A stretch of DNA of 64,000 nt from Dehalococcoidia bacterium (GCA_965207935.1 CBDBNM010000002.1:397692-461691), one strand, 5' to 3'. Counted from the first letter of the stretch, positions 6,518 to 17,334 are shown. A program made the numbers and translations. The notes: generated from the sequence alone by a model not told the origin.

Positions 6518-6709
6518 CTATACCTGGTAGCGCTGGAGGAGCTGGCGGGCGATGACCAGGCGCTGGATCTCGTTGGTGCCCTCGCCGATGATCATCAGGG
6601 GCGCATCCCTGTAGTAGCGCTCAATGGGGTTCTCCTTGATGTACCCGTAGCCCCCGAATATGCGCATCGCCTCCAGAGTTACCTCGGCGCATATCTCGCC
6701 GGCGAACAG
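6518..6709 (-). repeat. Direct repeat copy A (192 bp) of acyl-CoA dehydrogenase 3' end
   Basis: Hand alignment with 10466..10657 has no gaps and 14 mismatches in 192 nt (about 93% identity). 13 mismatches are synonymous and 1 is Gly/Ser. Homology ends abruptly after GGCGAACAG (6701..6709). Confidence 0.9.
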
Positions 6710-6730
6710 TAGCAGGAATGCGCCTCTCAT
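6518..6730 (-). pseudogene. Displaced 3' fragment of acyl-CoA dehydrogenase (last 63 codons) with an 8-codon novel N-terminus
   Basis: The translation ...[62 protein letters not shown] is identical over 59 aa to the C-terminus of the intact gene at 10466..11626. Its ATG (6730..6728) overlaps the TAA of the 969-aa gene as TAATG. Confidence 0.85.
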
Positions 6731-9639
6731 TAGTTGTCAAGGGTCAGCAAGTCGAAGCGTCCCCTTTTTAGCAGGTTCTCGCGAGCGCGCTCCGCATTTG
6801 CTCGAACGGTGGAATCTGCGCTATCTAGACCTGCCTTCAGGATTCTCGTGGCAGGCTCCGTCATAATGTAAAAGGAATCGCCTCCCAATTTGTCAGTTAA
6901 CTTAGCGAAGCACTCAACCACGATTTCAGCGTTACGAGGCAGAAGCTCGGTTAACGTTTCGACCTGCCCGTATATCTCCCTGGTATCAGAAAGCCCAGTA
7001 TCGAGGATTCTCGAAAAGGCATCCAACCGCCATTCTTCATCCAGGCATGGCGCTTCCAGCCAGCGTGAAAACCTCGCGAGCTCCTTCGCGTCGCCTGCCT
7101 CAAGACGCCATTCGAAGAAAGACATCAACCTGTCATTGAGGTCCTTATCCAAATGCTTGCCGGTGTTCCTCAGAATGAACCCTATATGGTTAAACAGATT
7201 TCCCCAATACTCGGTTTCAGGGCCAGTCTGTTGATAGAATCGTTCTATAAGGCTCTCAGGTCCTTTGAGGGGGTAATGGCCCCACAAGAAGTAAGCAAAT
7301 AGGTGCTGACCAAGAGTGTCAACGAAGGTGTCCAGAGGATGATCCCGTAACTCAAGGTTAGCAAGGTGTATCAGTGCAAACGCGAAGTCGTCTCTCAGGA
7401 CATTGAACATTGGGCCGTTGGGATGCGTGTAGCGGAGCAGTGTGCCAAACCCCGTCCGCCATCCAGGCAGGGAGCCCTGTGGGAACACGTCCTGCCTGTG
7501 TTCTACAGCCCACGCCTCATTCAACCCAAGCAAACGTCCATAGTTAAACCCCAAGATCGCGTATTCCGGTAACGTTAAGGGGATCGTGGCTTCTGGCGTA
7601 AATCTCCCTTCCAAAGTGTCCATGACGAAGTGAATGTCGTCTTCTCTACCCTGCCTTCTCAACCACAATCCGAATCGGATCAAGCTTTCCAAGCCACGGC
7701 TTCGGGTGTTGTTGATCGCCTCGGCGAATTGATCGTTCCGGTCTGGGAATACCGGGTTATCCCCATCTAATCGCGCGTCGAACTGGGTACAAAGCGCATC
7801 CAAAAGCTTGGCCAATCGCACATGTGCAGAAACCGGCACGTCAACATCTTCTTCAACGCAGCTTCCCACCAAGTCCCCGACGGCGCGGCGTGCTGTCTGC
7901 CAGTGAGGCTTCTCTTTAGGTCGATCGTCGTATCCGTAACCTTCCTCTGGTTCCTGGTCAGGGTGAGACATTACCCATTGGCAAAACTCTAGACAATGTT
8001 CCAGTTCGTCGAAGTTACCCTCACTCATGTGTTCCTGCATTCCCGCAACCATTGCTCGCACGTAAATTGGTCGTTCAATCTTATCCCGGTGGTCAAGCCA
8101 GTAGCGTAGCCTTGCCTTATGCGGGAGCACCAGGTCCTTGAAGAAGGTTTGAAAAGTTTCAGCCAAGGCCTCGACGTTAACCTCCGTTAGCCAACTTTCC
8201 TCGTCATCTGCACTCTCGTACCTGTGCTCCGAGTCCCAATCGTTAATGAAGACGAGCAACTCTTCATCGGGTAGGGCAGCGAGGTCTTCTAGCGACCTTG
8301 GGCTTCGACGTGCGACCACTCCACCTCTTGCGTATCCAATTTGCAAGTAGTCGTCGTCAGCTATCTGCCTGTCATGTCCATCTTCCAATTGACGATAATA
8401 GTCTAGATATTCGTCAAATAGCACGCACTCAAAGGGTTTAAACTGCATCCTGTGGAAGTTGCGCCGAAGATGCTCAAGCTGCTCTGGGGTCAATGCTTCA
8501 CTGTCATACTGTCTCTTCGGACCGCTCAGGAAGAGGTCGAATATCCCACTTAGCTCCTCCCTGCTAAGCAACTCTGTACCGAAGCGTTCACATCCGCTAC
8601 GCACCATTTGTTGAAACTCGAAATGATGTGGCCACACGTCGTAGTGTTCTTGCATTAGTATGAAGTCGCGAATCAGAGGCTTCGTCTGCTCGCTTGGATA
8701 TAGGGCGGCAAGGTGTTGTTGCAAACGATTAAAGAGCCTCCATCGGTGAACACGTAATCGCTCGAGCAACTCAGGTATTAGGTCAGGAGCTTGTTTAAAC
8801 ACTCTCTCGCAAGCAACGGTTAGCATGTGAACCAGTAACTCTGCAGGCTCCTCGTCTTCTACCCCACTACCCGAACCACTAAGGCGCGGGCACCAAATCT
8901 CCGAATAGTCTTGATCCGTACCTTGTTCTAGGTGGTCTTGATGTGTGCTTAACCGTATCATCTCAACGGTGGCATCTACTAAGGCCAGCGCAACTTTGAG
9001 TGGTTCCCTTTCTGATAGTGGGATTACTCCTTTCTCTAGCACCTCACGATAGTTCCACGTGTCGACCGAGGGGGTAGGTCGAAGTAGGGTCGTCCAATCT
9101 TCTGGGTTCTGCCTGCGGCGCAGTTGTTTGTCCTCAGCGGCAGGATCCGGAACAAATTTAACCAGGGCTTGCACAAGCTCCAAAGCAACCGAGTTTTCGT
9201 TTTCGGTCACCCAGTGAAATAGTAACTCGGAAAACTTACGGGTAAGGAACCAGGGATTAGCTCCACCTGATTTGAGCAGTATAGGCTTGAGTCTTGCAGA
9301 GTGGACGCCGGGAAGTTGCAACGCGATCTCGATAATTCCCAACCGGACCATCGGATTCTCGACCTCGGGGAGCTGTAGAACGACTTCCACAACTTCATCG
9401 GGAACTTCCCGAACAATGTTCTTCAGATACTCAAGCTCAGGCCAAAGAGGGAATTGGTTCGAACCATCGGGGAGATCGATCGGGCCCGGAGGGGATTCAA
9501 AATATCCGCGCTCCACTAAAGGCTGCAGCCACAAAGGATTCCTTAGCTGTGAGAAGAAATACCGACGGTCGTTCTCCTTCTTGGCTGACGAAAGAGCCCT
9601 TTCTACAAGTTCATCCGTTGGCTTCTTCCAAGATGTCAT
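6730..9639 (-). CDS. Hypothetical 969-aa protein, apparently all-alpha/repeat-like, acidic and Trp-rich; no catalytic or NTP-binding motif recognised
   Basis: A long uninterrupted ORF in low-GC DNA has a strong coding likelihood. The start ATG at 9639 is preceded by TAAGGGG and overlaps the upstream gene by 29 nt. I found no Walker A, DEAD/H, HNH, PD-(D/E)xK or recombinase motif by eye. The N-terminus reads [26 protein letters not shown]...[13 protein letters not shown]. Confidence 0.8.
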
Positions 9640-10273
9640 GGAGACCCCTTAGTCGTTCAAATTCGCTACTGGCCGCAACGTACAGCAGCCCGTCGAGGGT
9701 TTGAAAATGCTCTTCAACGTCGAATGCTGCTATTTGACCATAGCCCGATTCGCGGATGTGGGCAAATTCAAAGAACCCTTTCTTGGTGCGCCTCCATTCC
9801 TGTACGAAATTGGAGGGGACTCGGTCTATAGACTCGTAATCTAGGAGTTCGTTGAAGAAGATTGTTTCCGATTCGTTTGCTCTCGCTCGCCCCTTCTTGT
9901 GGTCATCGATCAGATCCTTAACCGTCTGGCAAATATCATACGGAATTGTATGCCCTCCATCAGGATCGTCAGGCGTCATGAAACCTCTACCTGTCCATTC
10001 GTCCTTCCATTCGCTTTGTAGTTTGTCGACGCGCTGGGCATATTGGACTTGACTTCTTTGATTGCCCGAGATGGTCGGTCCCAGTCCGTTCATGATTTCC
10101 CTGCCAGCATGAGCAACAAATGTAATGAAACCAGGTGGTTTCCACTTCAAAAGGAACAAGGCACCTTCGTACACATCGGCGTATACTGGCAACACCAGCG
10201 TCTCCCTAAGCCAGTCTAGGACGCGTTGTTGCTCGGGCGTTAGGGCCATTTCAGAGTGAAGCAATGCTGGCAT
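9611..10273 (-). CDS. Hypothetical 220-aa protein, first gene of the islet operon
   Basis: The ORF has the same low-GC codon usage as the 969-aa gene and overlaps it by 29 nt. No recognised domain. The C-terminal RLRGLH fits only the minimal Rx4H pattern, which is weak. No obvious SD upstream; the alternative start is at 10249. Confidence 0.7.
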   Translation of the reverse strand: MPALLHSEMALTPEQQRVLDWLRETLVLPVYADVYEGALFLLKWKPPGFITFVAHAGREIMNGLGPTISGNQRSQVQYAQRVDKLQSEWKDEWTGRGFMTPDDPDGGHTIPYDICQTVKDLIDDHKKGRARANESETIFFNELLDYESIDRVPSNFVQEWRRTKKGFFEFAHIRESGYGQIAAFDVEEHFQTLDGLLYVAASSEFERLRGLHDILEEANG

Positions 10274-10465
10274 GTAAGTTCAATGTAATCAACAGTATGT
10301 TACCGCAGATTCTGGACTCCTATTCGACAATCTGCTCAAGAAACTGTAAGCCATAGGGTGGAGGACGTGGGGGAGCTCGTCGTGATCTTCGGTGTCTTTG
10401 CCTGCTTCACATATTTGCTAGGCAACAGGCAGAGCCTGCGCGCGGGCTTAGTCACCCAGGGACCT

Positions 10466-10657
10466 CTACACCTGGTAGCGCTGGAGGAGCTGGCGGGCGA
10501 TGACGAGGCGCTGGATCTCGTTGGTGCCCTCGCCGATTATCATCAGAGGCGCATCTCGGTAGTAGCGCTCGATGGGATTCTCCTTGATATATCCGTAGCC
10601 CCCGAAGATGCGCATCGCCTCCAGGGTCACCTCGGCGCATATCTCGCTGGCGAACAG
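10466..10657 (-). repeat. Direct repeat copy B (192 bp), the functional 3' end of the intact acyl-CoA dehydrogenase
   Basis: See copy A at 6518..6709. Confidence 0.9.
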
Positions 10658-11626
10658 CTTGGCCATTCCCGCTTCCAGGTCAACCCTCAGGCCCTGGTCC
10701 TTCTTCTCGGCGGCCTTGTAGGTCAGCAGGCGGGCCGCCTCTATCTTCGTCCCCATGTCCGCCAGCTTGAGCTGGATGGCTTGGTGGCGGGAGATGGGCG
10801 ACCCGAAGGTGCGCCGGCCCTGGGCGTACTTGATGGCCGCTTCGAAGGCGGCCGTGGCCACGCCGACAGCGCGGGCTGCCACGTTGATGCGACCAGTCTC
10901 CAGACCGGCCATCACCTGCTGGAAGCCCTGGCCCTCCACCCCTCCCACCAGGTTGTCGGACCCGACCCGGAAGTTGTCGAAGATCAGCTCACAGGTGTCC
11001 AAGCCCCGGTATCCCAGCTTGTCCAGGTGCCTGCCCACCTCGAAGCCTTTCCCGCCCTTCTCTACGATGAAGCAGCTTATCCCTTCGTGGGGAGGAGTGG
11101 CGTCCTTGTTGGTCTTGGTTATCAGGGCGAAGGTGTCCCCGTGCTGCCCATTGGTGATGAACATCTTGGTGCCGTTGATCAGGTACTCTTCGCCGTCGCG
11201 GGTTGCGGTCAGCTCTATGGCCTGCACATCGCTTCCGGCGTTGGGTTCGGTCAGGGCGAGCCCGCCCCGCTTTTCGCCGCGGGCCATGGCGGGCAGGAAC
11301 CGGGCCTTCTGCTCTTCGGTCCCGTAGTGGGTAACCACGTAGGTCATGATGTGATGGGTGCCGATAATGCCGCTAATGCTCATCCAGCCCTTGCACAGCT
11401 CTTCGAAGATCATGGCGAAAGTGGTGTAGTCCAGCCCCATGCCGCCGTACTCTTCGGGGATGGTTATGCCAAAGAGGCCCATCTCCTTCATCTTTTCGAC
11501 CAGCTCCAGGGGGACGATGTCGTTGCGCTCGTACTCCTGGACGATGGGCTCCACATCCCGCCGGACAAACTCTCGCACCATGTTGATGATCTGGGTGCGA
11601 GCTTCCTCAGGTGTTCTGGTTGTCAC
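10466..11626 (-). CDS. Acyl-CoA dehydrogenase (short/medium-chain type)
   Basis: ACAD hallmarks are present: GLALTEPNAGSD, the FITNG region and the C-terminal [23 protein letters not shown]. The track ORF extends to 11689. I prefer the GTG at 11626 because GAGGAGGAAGC lies 9 nt upstream and the resulting ~386 aa length is typical. Confidence 0.9.
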   Translation of the reverse strand: MTTRTPEEARTQIINMVREFVRRDVEPIVQEYERNDIVPLELVEKMKEMGLFGITIPEEYGGMGLDYTTFAMIFEELCKGWMSISGIIGTHHIMTYVVTHYGTEEQKARFLPAMARGEKRGGLALTEPNAGSDVQAIELTATRDGEEYLINGTKMFITNGQHGDTFALITKTNKDATPPHEGISCFIVEKGGKGFEVGRHLDKLGYRGLDTCELIFDNFRVGSDNLVGGVEGQGFQQVMAGLETGRINVAARAVGVATAAFEAAIKYAQGRRTFGSPISRHQAIQLKLADMGTKIEAARLLTYKAAEKKDQGLRVDLEAGMAKLFASEICAEVTLEAMRIFGGYGYIKENPIERYYRDAPLMIIGEGTNEIQRLVIARQLLQRYQV

Positions 11627-11793
11627 CAAGAGCTTCCTCCTCGATAACGGTGACCGTGATGCAGCTATTCTAGCGAGGGAGGCTGGCAAAGGTCTAGGTT
11701 CCGGGCCTCTACTTCAATTGCTCTCCAGCAAGCAGTCCGAATATAATTGGCCTAAGTTAGACCCTAGAGTTTACTGGCCCGGCCTTCTACGCT

Positions 11794-13939: not shown

Positions 13940-15433
13940 ATGGCGGATCCCAACTTTGCCGACAAGACTATCTGGACCGGGGACAACCTGGACATCCTGC
14001 GGGGGATGAACTCGGAGTGCGTTGACCTAATCTACCTTGACCCTCCCTTCAACTCCAACCAGGACTACGCTGCGCCGGTAGGCAGCAAGGCAGCTGGCGC
14101 CGCTTTCAAGGACACCTGGACACTCTCAGATCTAGATGTCGCCTGGATGGGCCTGATCGCCGACGAGCAGCCCGCCTTAGCCCATGTGGTCAAGACAGCA
14201 GGCCTGACCCATGGCAAGGGAATGCAGAGCTACTTGACCATGATGGCTATCCGGCTGATGGAGATGCACAGGGCCTTGAAGCCAACCGGCAGCATTTATC
14301 TCCACTGCGATCCGACAGCCAGCCACTACCTTAAGATGCTGATGGATGCGGTGTTCGGTGTCGAGAACTTTAGAAATGAGATAATCTGGCGAAATACCGG
14401 GGCACACAATTTCGCTGACCGCTTCGGCCCAATCCATCAAGATATTCTGTTCTACGCGAAATCGAACCAATACAAACATAGAGCCATATATGGACCATAT
14501 TTGAAAGGCCATGTCGAAACTTACTTCAAGAAACAGGACGAACATGGCCGGTACTGGACTAACTCAATCCACGGTTCGGGAACTCGAAACGGCATGAGCG
14601 GTGAACCATGGCGAGGGTATGACCCTACCCCGTTTGGTCGCCATTGGGCCGTTCCGAGCGCATTAGTTTTGGCTTTTGGGATTGATCCTGACCTATCACA
14701 ACATGAAAAATTGGACGCTCTCTATGATTTGGGTCTAATCGACCTACCGGAGACGACAGGGCAAAGTTTGCCGACATACCGACAATATCTAGACAGGAGT
14801 TCGGGCCAGCTTTTGCAAGACATTTGGGCATTTCAGCCGCATACTAGGGACTGTCTGTATGGGACGGAGGCGAGTATTGATGAGGATGTATGCTGGATCT
14901 CCCCTAGAGATAAGAAGGAACGCACTGGCTACCCAACACAGAAACCATTGGGCTTGCTGGAACGTATCATCCTAGCCTCCTCCGACGAGGGAGACCTGGT
15001 GCTCGACCCGTTTTGTGGCTGCGCCACAGCCTGCGTAGCTGCCGATAAGTTGGGGCGCAAGTGGGTTGGAATTGATATTTCCCCCAAGGCTGCAGAGCTG
15101 GTTAACCTACGGCTTCGGCAGGAGATGGGTAGCCTATTTCATCACGGATATGTGACTGCGCGTTCAGACATTCCCCAGCGCACGGATATTGAGAAGCCCA
15201 AGCCTTACAGGGAAAATAAGCATGTCCTCTTCGGCGAGCAAGAGGGTTTCTGTGCCGGTTGCAAGGGGGATTTTCCATTCCGCAATTTCACCGTCGACCA
15301 CATCGTCCCCAAGTCAAGAGGCGGGACGGATCACGTCGAGAACCTTCAGCTCCTTTGCATGGCATGCAATTCTCTGAAGGGGGACCGGCCCATGGAGTAT
15401 CTGATGGCGCAGTTGGCTGAGGCGAAACCCTAA
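13940..15433 (+). CDS. DNA methyltransferase (N6-adenine/N4-cytosine, beta-class order) fused to a C-terminal HNH endonuclease domain
   Basis: Motif IV IYLDPPFNS is near the N-terminus, and motif I LVLDPFCGCATACVAADKLGRKWVGIDIS lies at about residue 360. The HNH module is FCAGCKGDF...FTVDHIVPKSRGGTDHVENLQLLCMACNSLKGD. GGAAGGTGA RBS upstream. Confidence 0.85.
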   Translation: MADPNFADKTIWTGDNLDILRGMNSECVDLIYLDPPFNSNQDYAAPVGSKAAGAAFKDTWTLSDLDVAWMGLIADEQPALAHVVKTAGLTHGKGMQSYLTMMAIRLMEMHRALKPTGSIYLHCDPTASHYLKMLMDAVFGVENFRNEIIWRNTGAHNFADRFGPIHQDILFYAKSNQYKHRAIYGPYLKGHVETYFKKQDEHGRYWTNSIHGSGTRNGMSGEPWRGYDPTPFGRHWAVPSALVLAFGIDPDLSQHEKLDALYDLGLIDLPETTGQSLPTYRQYLDRSSGQLLQDIWAFQPHTRDCLYGTEASIDEDVCWISPRDKKERTGYPTQKPLGLLERIILASSDEGDLVLDPFCGCATACVAADKLGRKWVGIDISPKAAELVNLRLRQEMGSLFHHGYVTARSDIPQRTDIEKPKPYRENKHVLFGEQEGFCAGCKGDFPFRNFTVDHIVPKSRGGTDHVENLQLLCMACNSLKGDRPMEYLMAQLAEAKP

Positions 15434-15459
15434 ATGTTGCGGCGGATAAGACGAGCTAT

Positions 15460-15479
15460 GCGTGCCAGAAGAGGCACGC
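15460..15479 (+). terminator. Hairpin GCGTGCC-AGAAGA-GGCACGC downstream of the methyltransferase gene
   Basis: 7-bp GC-rich stem 27 nt after the stop codon. No U-tract. Confidence 0.3.
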
Positions 15480-15585
15480 GAAATCTGGGGCATGGCCATG
15501 TTTCGCAAGCAAAGGCCGCGGTCCGAGCATTTTCACAGGGTAAGTCAAAACCGAAAAGTGGCCAGGGCAAGAGGAAACGTCGCCA

Positions 15586-16044
15586 ATGAACTTCCGATCG
15601 AACCCTGACGGCAGCAGAACCATGACCGTAAGCGAAAGTGAGAGTCAAGCATACCTTCTCTTGGGACTATTGGCATCGCTAGCCGGCCGCAGAGAATTGA
15701 TGGACGAACTAAAGAACGGGAATAAGTCCCTCGACGATCGCATAGCTGGCGGGATGACGGGATGGAACGCAGGTGAAATTCCCTCAGATGAGATGTCAAG
15801 AATGGAGGCTTTCAGACACGCCCTTGTCCACGGGCTCTGCATAGTAGCCGAAGACGGGGGCATCTTCATTTCCGATGAGAAGTATGGCGAGGACGACTCA
15901 CGAAGTCACTTATCATTGTCCCTTGTCGAGCTCCAAGAAATGGCGGGCGCGTGGGTAGAATGGTTGGCACCGCCGATCGTTATTGATCGTTATATGGCCG
16001 CAGGACACCCGCACCCCATCCAGGTGTCCATAACCCCGAAGTAA
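15586..16044 (+). CDS. Hypothetical 152-aa protein (orphan)
   Basis: ORF with AGAGGAAAC upstream and no recognised motif. Its codon usage resembles the neighbouring methyltransferase gene. Confidence 0.45.
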   Translation: MNFRSNPDGSRTMTVSESESQAYLLLGLLASLAGRRELMDELKNGNKSLDDRIAGGMTGWNAGEIPSDEMSRMEAFRHALVHGLCIVAEDGGIFISDEKYGEDDSRSHLSLSLVELQEMAGAWVEWLAPPIVIDRYMAAGHPHPIQVSITPK

Positions 16045-16089
16045 GCCGATTTCAAGGGCGAGCCCAACACATAGGGGCTACATCGGCAA

Positions 16090-16326
16090 GTGAGGATCGA
16101 ACCTGTGTCAGCAGTGGATGGACACCTCGGCGAGTTTGAACCTGTCGTCGACGGAATGGAGGAGCCAATGACCGAGGAATATCGAAAATTTGACCCAGCG
16201 GACTACATCAAGACCACGAAAGATGTCCAGGGGCTCCTCGATGCCTCTGCGGATGAGGACCCTGGGGACGGGGTCGTGATTCGAGCTGTGTTGAAGTACA
16301 TCGCCCAAAGACACCGTTCGTCTTGA
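16090..16326 (+). pseudogene. Truncated HigA-like addiction-module antidote protein (N-terminal half only, HTH missing)
   Basis: KFDPADYIKTTKDVQGLLDASADEDPGDGVVIRAVLKYIAQRHR matches the pattern wD-a-eyL...i..YL.aaled.Dp..i..AL.diArArG of COG3636/TIGR02684-type antitoxins (from memory). It stops where the helix-turn-helix should begin. There is no RelE/HigB-like partner upstream. Confidence 0.5.
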
Positions 16327-16383
16327 GTAATACCTGGGAACTTATCATCCATTAGATGCGTCTAAGAACTTAGGGAGGGCGCA

Positions 16384-17334
16384 ATGAAACGACTCACGAT
16401 TATCTTCGCAGTTCTGCTGGCCATCATCCTGGCAGCCTGCCAAAACCCGACGCCAACCCCGACGCTGGCGCCGACATCCACACCGACACCCACCCCCACG
16501 GCGGTACCACCGACGCCGACCGCCACCCCTGCACCTACGGCGACGCCCACCATCAGCCCAGGAACCGCTGCCTACAATGCCTTCTTGGAGATGCTTGAGG
16601 AGGCCCCTGCTGACTTGCGCGCTGAGACCAAAGCCTGCTTGATGGACCTCTTCGAGGAGGACCCATCTGTGGCTGAGTCGTTCACCACGGGGGAGGACCT
16701 GAGCGGGCCGGCGATGCTCAGCTTTCTGGCCTGCCTGACGCCCGAGGAGGCCGCAGCGCTGACGCCTCCCGGTGAAGGCCCTCCGCCGGATGTTGCCGGC
16801 TTGGCCTGTCTGGCCGAGAAGCTTGAGGGCGCCCCCGAGAAAGACCGTATCCTCGCCGTCCTCTCAGGCGCCGACCCATCGGGGGAAGGGCTGACGCTGG
16901 AGGAAAGCGCGGTGCTTGGTGGGGCTGTGGAAGCCTGTGACCTCGATACCGGTTTCACCTTCCCTGGAGGAGAGGGCGCCGAAGAGAATCCGTTGGCCGG
17001 TACAGAGTGGAGGCTGGTCCTCGTGCTGGGCAGCGCCCTCCCTCCCACCGGGGTGGTGGGGGGCGACCCAACCGCCGAGTTTACAGCCATGGATATGATG
17101 GGATGGACAGGCTGCAACTCCTACGGCGCCAGATACAGCATACAAGGAGAGGAACTGCTCCTTGACAACCTGGCGTGGACGGATGCGGGCTGCCCGTCTC
17201 AGGAGCTAACCCAGCAGGAACAGCGGATGCAGGACTCGCTGGCGACGGTGGAGGAGTTCGAGATTTCAGGGGACCAACTTACGCTTCACAGCGAAGGCGG
17301 CGAGGCGCTGGTCTTCGAGCGAATCAGGCAGTAG
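16384..17334 (+). CDS. Lipoprotein with Pro/Thr-rich linker and C-terminal META (HslJ-like) domain
   Basis: Signal peptide with lipobox LAAC (MKRLTIIFAVLLAIILAAC), then a PTPTPT low-complexity linker. The C-terminus reads LAGTEWRLV...GCNSYGARYSIQGEELLLDNLAWTDAGCP, which is typical of META domains. Confidence 0.75.
   Translation: MKRLTIIFAVLLAIILAACQNPTPTPTLAPTSTPTPTPTAVPPTPTATPAPTATPTISPGTAAYNAFLEMLEEAPADLRAETKACLMDLFEEDPSVAESFTTGEDLSGPAMLSFLACLTPEEAAALTPPGEGPPPDVAGLACLAEKLEGAPEKDRILAVLSGADPSGEGLTLEESAVLGGAVEACDLDTGFTFPGGEGAEENPLAGTEWRLVLVLGSALPPTGVVGGDPTAEFTAMDMMGWTGCNSYGARYSIQGEELLLDNLAWTDAGCPSQELTQQEQRMQDSLATVEEFEISGDQLTLHSEGGEALVFERIRQ

Follow-up and report, generated by a model that had tools for sequence, protein, structure and literature searches.

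Dsr1 is reportedly the defence-associated sirtuin 1 of Gao et al. in 2020 and Garb et al. in 2022. It is a single-protein system that depletes NAD+ (10.1101/2021.12.14.472415). In the text of PMC13581612 (Nature 2026;657:735; preprint PMC12803255), the sensor of Dsr1 is described as homologous to that of the STAND protein Avs7 and as common to non-STAND proteins with diverse, interchangeable N-terminal effectors, which include NADases, nucleases, kinases, and a HEPN-like RNase in Streptomyces. The same two texts name the phage major capsid protein as the only trigger that makes SeAvs7 and EcDsr1 toxic, and they report effector mutants to be inactive. PMC13581612, as far as its text goes, further states that split proteins exist in this sensor family, that the co-factor of SeAvs7 is host EF-Tu, and, in a figure legend, that N-terminal “effector-associated domains” occur. 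The present analysis concerns a pair of genes that resembles these systems. It lies in a stretch of 64,000 nucleotides (nt) from a Dehalococcoidia bacterium (GCA_965207935.1 CBDBNM010000002.1:397692-461691), termed the window, in which an islet of ~3.75 kb with low guanine-plus-cytosine (GC) content (6710..10465, lower in GC than its flanks) carries two overlapping genes as its sole cargo. The large gene (6730..9639, minus strand) encodes a protein of 969 amino acids (aa) in the position of the sensor, and the small gene (9611..10249, minus strand) encodes a protein of probably 212 aa in the position of the effector.

The islet is probably a two-subunit anti-phage system of the Dsr1/Avs7-sensor class, with the 969-aa protein as a capsid-type sensor and the 212-aa protein as its effector, coupled through the gene overlap and acquired horizontally. 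The pair belongs to the recently described class with swappable effectors and is not categorically new. By analogy with EcDsr1 and SeAvs7, the ligand of the sensor would be a conserved structural protein of the phage, with an HK97-fold major capsid protein as the likeliest candidate. The small subunit would be kept inactive on the sensor until the phage ligand binds, upon which it would be released or activated, and the activated predicted nuclease would then stop phage replication, possibly by abortive infection.

A Dsr1-like sensor and its N-terminal slot

The large gene was called as an open reading frame (ORF) with an ATG start, and its product is co-linear with the part of Dsr1 that lies downstream of SIR2. 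Residues 443-751 of the protein match positions 731-1012 of the PADLOC Dsr1 model PDLC04166, which has 1227 positions, with an E value of 2.2e-12. The same model is matched by 44 of the 50 aligned family members, with a best E of 2.9e-27. This match, together with the publication of the sensor family in 2026, overturns the statement of an earlier sequence-only reading, made from the DNA without database searches, that the pair is undescribed and that nothing known matches it. In relatives the alignments are longer: residues 5-765 of P0115 cover profile positions 302-1026, residues 235-1012 of L073, in which a PIN domain is fused to the sensor, cover 308-1042, and residues 177-1020 of L044, a fusion with the small-protein domain, cover 267-1064. 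Because the co-linear matches begin only past profile position ~300, the N-terminal modules of such proteins occupy the exact position of SIR2. On this profile evidence, the 969-aa protein is a Dsr1 counterpart minus the ~300-residue N-terminal SIR2 domain, which destroys NAD, and the homology of its sensor region to Dsr1 places it in the Dsr1/Avs7-sensor superfamily. No SIR2 domain was found in either window protein with Pfam, NCBIfam, or PADLOC, and the pair is thus not a Dsr1 in the strict sense. The Pfam and NCBIfam scans returned nothing significant for either protein, and no PADLOC model besides the two for Dsr1 was matched among the 50 family members.

The large protein was also characterised by its composition and its predicted fold. 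It is acidic, with a pI of 4.95, and tryptophan makes up 2.4% of its residues. Its AlphaFold2 model is an all-alpha solenoid with a predicted local distance difference test score (pLDDT) of 85 and a predicted template modelling score (pTM) of 0.54, which bears out the earlier description of an acidic, Trp-rich helical-repeat scaffold. Compared with the PDB by Foldseek, the model retrieved only generic HEAT/ARM solenoids (importin-beta, CAND1, SF3B1, and PP2A-A) at TM-scores of ~0.2. The architecture that characterises the Dsr1/Avs7-sensor superfamily is a TPR-type solenoid that is bilobed and sharply bent, and among the Foldseek matches there was no Avs7 or Dsr1 structure.

What precedes the sensor varies among relatives. 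The longer large-protein relatives carry N-terminal extensions of 170-260 aa that fall into three classes, termed A1, A2, and PIN_12. A1 is the domain of the small protein itself, A2 is a related domain that is either fused or stand-alone, and PIN_12 is a nuclease domain that is present at full length (Pfam E 5e-21). The survey comprised 80 species-level loci from GTDB genomes, with L063, which holds two copies, counted under two arrangements. A split A1 gene lies directly upstream of the sensor in 42 loci and is disrupted in 2, A1 is fused in frame in 3, A2 is fused in 21, PIN_12 is fused in 7, and about 6 loci are truncated or ambiguous. The in-frame A1 fusions are L031, L044, L059, and P0080, and stand-alone A2 genes followed by the same sensor family are also found. 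An effector module at the N-terminal position, which is a feature of the superfamily, is therefore present as a fused PIN_12, A2, or A1 domain and, in the window, as a separate overlapping A1 gene. Since the same slot holds SIR2, PIN_12, or A2 elsewhere, the small protein stands in the effector position.

The number of sensor genes also varies. Tandem sensor paralogs occur in L010 (6269-9877 and 9998-12883), where a fused-A2 gene is followed by a sensor without an N-terminal module, and in L063 (5487-8489 and 8792-12901), where a fused-A2 system comes after a split-A1 system. In L086 (6753-9565) and L087 (6666-9558), the sensor is divided into two consecutive ORFs (319 + 618 aa and 471 + 495 aa, respectively) that come after a stand-alone A2 gene, and both halves match the sensor hidden Markov model (HMM) co-linearly. 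These divided sensors could be true three-gene systems, pseudogenes, or assembly frameshifts.

The small subunit and its coupling to the sensor

The small gene is co-oriented with the large gene and can be read as an ATG-initiated ORF of 220 aa (9611..10273, minus strand), the form in which it was first reported. That ORF exists, but the true start is probably 10249, which gives 212 aa, because most homologs are 211-212 aa long and begin at the equivalent of M9. In the protein collection the small gene of the window is called as 122 aa only (P0134, 55% coverage), and several relatives are listed at 121-123 aa. Automated annotation seems to shorten this gene systematically.

The AlphaFold2 model of the small protein is all-alpha and consists of eight helices, with a pLDDT of 81. 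The protein has 650 relatives at E <= 1e-3 among 1.84 billion representative proteins. A set of 81 diverse members shares only 22-47% identity with the window protein, yet all of them retain H47 and N211, and W13, Y27, P39, R50, N54, H164, and E186 are nearly invariant. The conserved His/Arg/Asn/Glu set looks like a group of candidate catalytic residues, as its pattern resembles catalytic more than purely structural conservation.

Profile comparisons indicate that A1 and A2 are homologous. With the broad A1 profile, termed A6, hhalign aligned the two domains over 201 co-linear columns at a probability of 96.5% and an E of 8e-10; a narrow A1 profile gave a merely suggestive probability of 57%. 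The A6 HMM finds three stand-alone A2 proteins at E values of 1e-11 to 5e-17, one of which (in L086) carries a faint pP_pnuc_1 annotation. A1 and A2 also have in common the signature AH-x2-RE-x3-[NE][RK]LP and a second AH motif. A2 reaches the Pfam model pP_pnuc_1 (PF18165) at 27.3 bits against a cut-off of 26.3, with the fused A2 domains scoring 21-27 bits, and many of the stand-alone A2 proteins are annotated as pP_pnuc_1. Through A2, the small protein is a remote homolog of the members of this predicted nuclease family. The earlier remark that no nuclease motif could be recognised is thus superficially true but leaves out this relationship. Judged from its sequence relatives and its place before the sensor, the small protein is probably the effector, a predicted nuclease built on His47/Arg50/Asn54, His164, and Asn211. 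An alternative assignment, in which the motif RLRGLH was taken for a HEPN-like Rx4H pattern, was rejected. Its histidine is not conserved, being D, N, E, or I in most homologs, and no HEPN family in Pfam or PADLOC is matched.

The genes of the two subunits are joined by a 29-nt dual-coding overlap (9611..9639, minus strand), which reads DILEEANG* in the small frame. In all 46 intact split loci examined, the window included, the overlap is exactly 29 nt long and contains an ATG start, with a conserved ATGAAATCYTGGAAGAARCCAAC...TGA. A Shine-Dalgarno-like AAGGGG, read from the sequence (9645..9650, minus strand), sits 5 nt upstream of the large-gene ATG, inside the small-gene codons for the L-R-G of RLRGLH, and we infer a role for it in translational coupling. 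The overlap and this internal sequence would together couple translation of both subunits. The pairwise identities of the two proteins correlate, with a mirror-tree r of 0.846 that 0 of 2000 Mantel permutations reach. The pair is conserved as a unit and is co-evolving, and no third gene is linked universally to it. The sequence-only reading had described two ORFs overlapping by 29 nt in a low-GC islet and had taken them for a self-contained, horizontally acquired, tightly coupled unit. Both statements stand, given the identical overlap in 46 loci, the low GC, the co-evolution, and a repeat footprint described below.

A compact, tightly overlapping, and horizontally mobile unit could also be a toxin-antitoxin or addiction module, which would stabilise the mobile islet without dedicated phage sensing. 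PIN, PemK, and HicB toxin-antitoxin genes are frequent neighbours of the system, as might be expected in that case. Nevertheless, such a module is very improbable, as a toxin or antitoxin of ~970 aa would be atypical and the large protein has a known phage sensor as its homolog. Moreover, the modules are fused in ~30 loci, which is hard to square with the differential stability that toxin and antitoxin need.

Some of the fusions retain a trace of the overlap. In L031 (9296-12877) and L044 (9374-12934), the ~13-nt overlap motif GAAGAAGCCAAC is found in two copies 17 nt apart, one translated as EEAN and the other as KKPK. The split and fused forms would therefore be interconvertible by tandem duplication or deletion of 17 nt. 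The fusion in L059 is independent, because its junction differs. A bolder form of the two-subunit anti-phage reading, possible though doubtful, holds that the all-alpha A1/pP_pnuc_1-like domain represents a novel fold of enzymatic effector without solved relatives, such as a His/Arg/Asn nuclease that needs no metal, which would serve as a detachable, in trans subunit of a capsid-sensing solenoid. The role of the overlap would then go beyond translational coupling: it could set the stoichiometry of the subunits and/or allow an occasional +1 frameshift to a fused polypeptide like the one that a single gene encodes in other lineages.

Several points weigh against a two-subunit anti-phage system with a nuclease effector. 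On the side of the large protein, the similarity to Dsr1 is remote and seen by profile only, and neither the Foldseek top 50 nor the PDB sequence search contained a Dsr or Avs structure. Because of this remoteness, the ligand may differ from the major capsid protein. On the side of the small protein, the best Foldseek match of its model in the PDB has an E of 0.59, with no structural neighbour; sequence searches of the PDB with single sequences and with A1, A3, and A6 profiles gave no significant match, and the PADLOC scan gave nothing. In the window, the small protein gave no hit with the Pfam pP_pnuc_1 model, whose gathering threshold is 26.3 bits, and only 2 of the 81 A1 relatives touch that model, weakly (E 0.0034). 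The nuclease label of pP_pnuc_1 is itself a purely computational prediction, and we know of no demonstration of nuclease activity in that family. The all-alpha domain could be an adaptor and not an enzyme. In the window, the pair is solitary beside housekeeping genes, outside any defence island, and a promoter and terminator scan of the islet returned sites no commoner than in shuffled sequence, with no sigma-70-like site above that expectation. Finally, the defence function, the capsid trigger, the nuclease activity, and the activation mechanism are all features that we infer.

The most serious rival is built on the adaptor possibility, because the nuclease label is only predicted and no relative of the fold has been solved. 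The islet would still encode Dsr1-class defence, but the small protein would be an adaptor, a regulator, or a module resembling an effector-associated domain and not the killing enzyme, and immunity would come from the sensor itself, for instance by capsid sequestration that blocks assembly, or from a recruited host factor. An all-alpha protein below the Pfam threshold and without structural or sequence match to solved enzymes fits this description. So do two features of the sensor family given in the text of PMC13581612, namely the N-terminal “effector-associated domains” and the reliance of SeAvs7 on the host factor EF-Tu as co-factor. An adaptor is nonetheless unlikely, since the same slot is an effector slot elsewhere, filled by PIN_12, a bona fide nuclease fold, in seven loci and by SIR2 in Dsr1. 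No other consistently linked gene is available to supply an enzyme, and members that have diverged widely keep His and Asn without exception and Arg, His, and Glu almost so, a pattern that looks catalytic. The reading with the small protein as effector is thus preferred.

Acquisition of the islet and its genomic neighbourhoods

The GC content drops to 0.49-0.53 over positions ~6700-10500 and is 0.513 for 6710-10458, compared with 0.62-0.63 in the flanks. The stretch from the acyl-CoA dehydrogenase stop to the small-gene start (10250..10465, minus strand) is the leader and putative promoter region and is without a notable ORF. No further credible ORF was found in the islet besides the two genes. 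The flanking genes are metabolic or housekeeping, with an amidohydrolase, a SulP permease, a rhodanese, and an SMP-30 gene on one side and an acyl-CoA dehydrogenase, CoaX, and CoaBC on the other.

A 192-nt direct repeat, D1, which had not been reported earlier, brackets the islet. The right copy (10466..10657, minus strand) forms the 3′ terminus of a complete acyl-CoA dehydrogenase gene (10466..11689), which was assigned by Pfam Acyl-CoA_dh_N/M/1. The left copy (6518..6709, minus strand), which emerged from the repeat search and alignment, is a displaced acyl-CoA dehydrogenase 3′ fragment comprising the last 63 codons and the stop. Between the copies there are 14 nt differences in 13 codons, of which 12 are synonymous and 1 is non-synonymous. 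As the differences are mostly synonymous, both copies diverged under coding selection, that is, in different genomes, and it follows that the islet came with a foreign acyl-CoA dehydrogenase 3′ end. The simplest reading of this footprint is Campbell-type integration, in which a circular intermediate, on which the 3′ fragment and the two genes lay, would have recombined with the chromosomal gene in a single crossover. No integrase is associated with the islet among the annotated window genes. The tRNA and Rfam scans of the window were empty, and so the islet is not tRNA-targeted.

The hosts of the surveyed loci are mostly metagenome-assembled genomes of sponge symbionts from ~ten phyla, with Poribacteria in the majority. 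Other hosts belong to Latescibacterota, Nitrospirales, Chloroflexota/Dehalococcoidia, Gammaproteobacteria, and Binatia, and further ones to Gemmatimonadota, Acidobacteria, Verrucomicrobia, Desulfarculia, Fidelibacterota, Desulfosporosinus, and Nitrosomonas. Across phyla, the relatives all share 41-51% identity with the window protein, a flat pattern that is typical of horizontal transfer. The islet was horizontally acquired, as seen from its low GC, the repeat differences, and the spread at similar identity over ~ten phyla. Even relatives sharing 70-80% identity with the window protein occupy entirely different places, and the neighbours of the closest relatives include PLD and helicase genes, GmrSD, a KAP NTPase, a toxin-antitoxin pair, transposases, integrases, and type I restriction-modification (R-M) genes. 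Horizontal mobility and association with defence islands, two further features of the superfamily, are therefore both present. The signature of a conflict system, which had been proposed from the islet alone, is upheld by these relatives, which sit in variable regions with type I, IIG, and III R-M, GmrSD, KAP NTPase, transposases, and integrases. The two genes are found together among homologs and outside conserved core contexts, and neither protein was assigned to a housekeeping family.

These contexts bear on the possibility that the pair is no conflict system at all, but a HEAT-repeat scaffold with a helical partner that has a cellular role and is mobile by chance. The eukaryote-type HEAT/ARM scaffolds returned by Foldseek are generic enough to allow it, and the pair is placed among metabolic genes both in the window and in L002. 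A cellular role is scarcely credible, however, for genes distributed patchily over ~ten phyla at ~45-50% identity, with no conserved core-genome context, differing locations even among the closest relatives, and a strong association with R-M and mobile elements. The specific homology to Dsr1 and the fusion to a PIN nuclease point in the same direction, namely to an anti-phage system.

No other genes directly adjoin the system nearly as often as R-M genes. Among the 58 loci for which neighbours were counted, type III Mod was found 11 times, ResIII 8 times, type IIG Eco57I/MmeI 6-7 times, HsdM 4 times, and HNH 3 times. In ten loci (L008, L014, L016, L025, L029, L039, L048, L052, L054, and L080), all from Poribacteria, the system lies on the same strand between type III mod and res, and in ~16 more it borders on type I hsd genes or a type IIG enzyme. 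By the ORF calls, at most 3 nt (<=3 nt) separate the sensor stop from the res start in L025. The slot between mod and res holds split-A1 as well as fused-A2 versions (L048 and L080), which suggests a cassette-exchange site or a functional link to R-M. In the window, a second low-GC patch (~14000-16500) contains a gene (13940-15433, plus strand) for a 497-aa protein in which an N6_N4 DNA methyltransferase is fused to an HNH nuclease and which is 57% identical to the gene directly upstream of the pair in the Chloroflexota loci L004, L011, and L012. The two islets are in opposite orientations, with three housekeeping genes between them.

Such neighbours raise the possibility of an R-M guard or accessory module similar to PrrC with its place inside a type I R-M locus, in which case the solenoid would monitor an R-M enzyme and unleash the small protein upon phage anti-restriction. 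The frequency of R-M neighbours, the ten loci with the system between mod and res, the narrow gap between sensor and res in L025, and the ~16 further loci with type I or IIG genes would all follow from such a function, as would the relative of the Chloroflexota methyltransferase-HNH gene that lies 3.7 kb away from the pair in the window. Set against this, all ten mod-[system]-res loci are poribacterial and may reflect few independent events, the type of the R-M partner varies (I, IIG, and III), and many loci, among them the window, L002, and L085, have no adjacent R-M. Homology to a sensor that was shown to bind a phage protein directly provides a simpler explanation. An R-M guard is accordingly judged quite unlikely, and direct sensing of a phage protein by the two-subunit system is favoured.

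A few loci have large genes of their own beside the system. An unannotated 1281-aa protein is encoded upstream of an A2/sensor pair of 230 + 962 aa in L088 (1501-5346) and L089 (831-4676). The small protein of this pair, P0450, is listed on 60 contigs, of which 24 were read. Transposase fragments flank both places, and a Rep_trans gene is found in L088 only. This version may have been spread by a mobile element. In L087 (250-5421), a 1723-aa protein with a faint nSTAND3 match is encoded upstream of the split A2/sensor, with an Nmad3 protein and an integrase downstream, and the locus looks like a defence islet that joins STAND and non-STAND sensors.

Comparison with described systems

PrrC/EcoprrI-type defence genes sit embedded in R-M operons. 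The likeness of the present system to them is one of location, seen in the ten Poribacteria loci with an insertion inside the R-M operon, between mod and res. There is no homology to PrrC, and the R-M embedding is lineage-restricted and absent from the window. DSR2 reportedly combines SIR2 with a HEAT-like C-terminal domain as its sensor for the phage tail tube protein, and it acts by abortive infection. Like the pair, it joins an effector to an alpha-solenoid sensor, which in DSR2 binds a phage structural protein. The effector differs, however, and the pair has no sequence or Foldseek match to the DSR2 structures, though these are in the PDB.

The nearest relative of the small subunit is pP_pnuc_1 (PF18165), a family predicted to consist of nucleases that associate with prokaryotic PIWI (pPIWI) proteins. 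The fused A2 domains reach or approach its threshold and the small protein is homologous to A2, whereas the small protein of the window itself is without a match to the Pfam model. No PIWI domain was found among the genes called in the loci inspected, so that an association with pPIWI or Argonaute is not seen there. Because a module of the A1/A2 type is computationally predicted as a partner of prokaryotic PIWI, the activity of this module would inform two defence contexts.

Closest to the pair as a whole are Dsr1 and the Avs7 class. Over profile positions ~300 to 1060 of 1227, the large protein aligns co-linearly with its homolog Dsr1, and both systems combine a long alpha-solenoid sensor of the tetratricopeptide repeat (TPR) type with an effector in the N-terminal position and occur patchily, by horizontal transfer, in defence contexts. 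Unlike Dsr1, the pair has no SIR2 or other NADase. The slot is taken by an all-alpha, pP_pnuc_1-like domain, the module in the effector position is a separate polypeptide from an overlapping gene, and the similarity between the two systems is remote and confined to profiles. With the Avs7 class the pair has in common one sensor with interchangeable effectors, here PIN_12, A2, and A1, fused or split; it differs from Avs7 itself by the lack of a STAND NTPase module. The term “PIN” occurs 0 times in the text of PMC13581612, a count that concerns PIN in the text alone, pP_pnuc not having been searched for and the supplementary tables being outside its scope.

Relative to the text of PMC13581612, the effector as a separate, translationally coupled subunit and the uncharacterised all-alpha effector domain are new. 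The invariance of the 29-nt overlap across phyla, the concentration in sponge symbionts, and the repeated lodging in R-M operons are likewise new, the overlap and the sponge-symbiont enrichment not being described in that text. Sponge symbionts (Poribacteria, Latescibacterota, Nitrospirales, and Chloroflexota), among which the system is abundant, have a phage defence that is little explored experimentally. At 50% identity, the superfamily comprises ~650 representative clusters. The family is a natural experiment for the study of how capsid sensors are wired to effectors, because PIN_12 and the related helical A1 and A2, the latter two either fused or split, exchange with one another as the three effectors of one sensor. 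If the reading is confirmed, the Dsr1/Avs7 sensor family would gain a two-subunit format together with an effector module of uncharacterised biochemistry.

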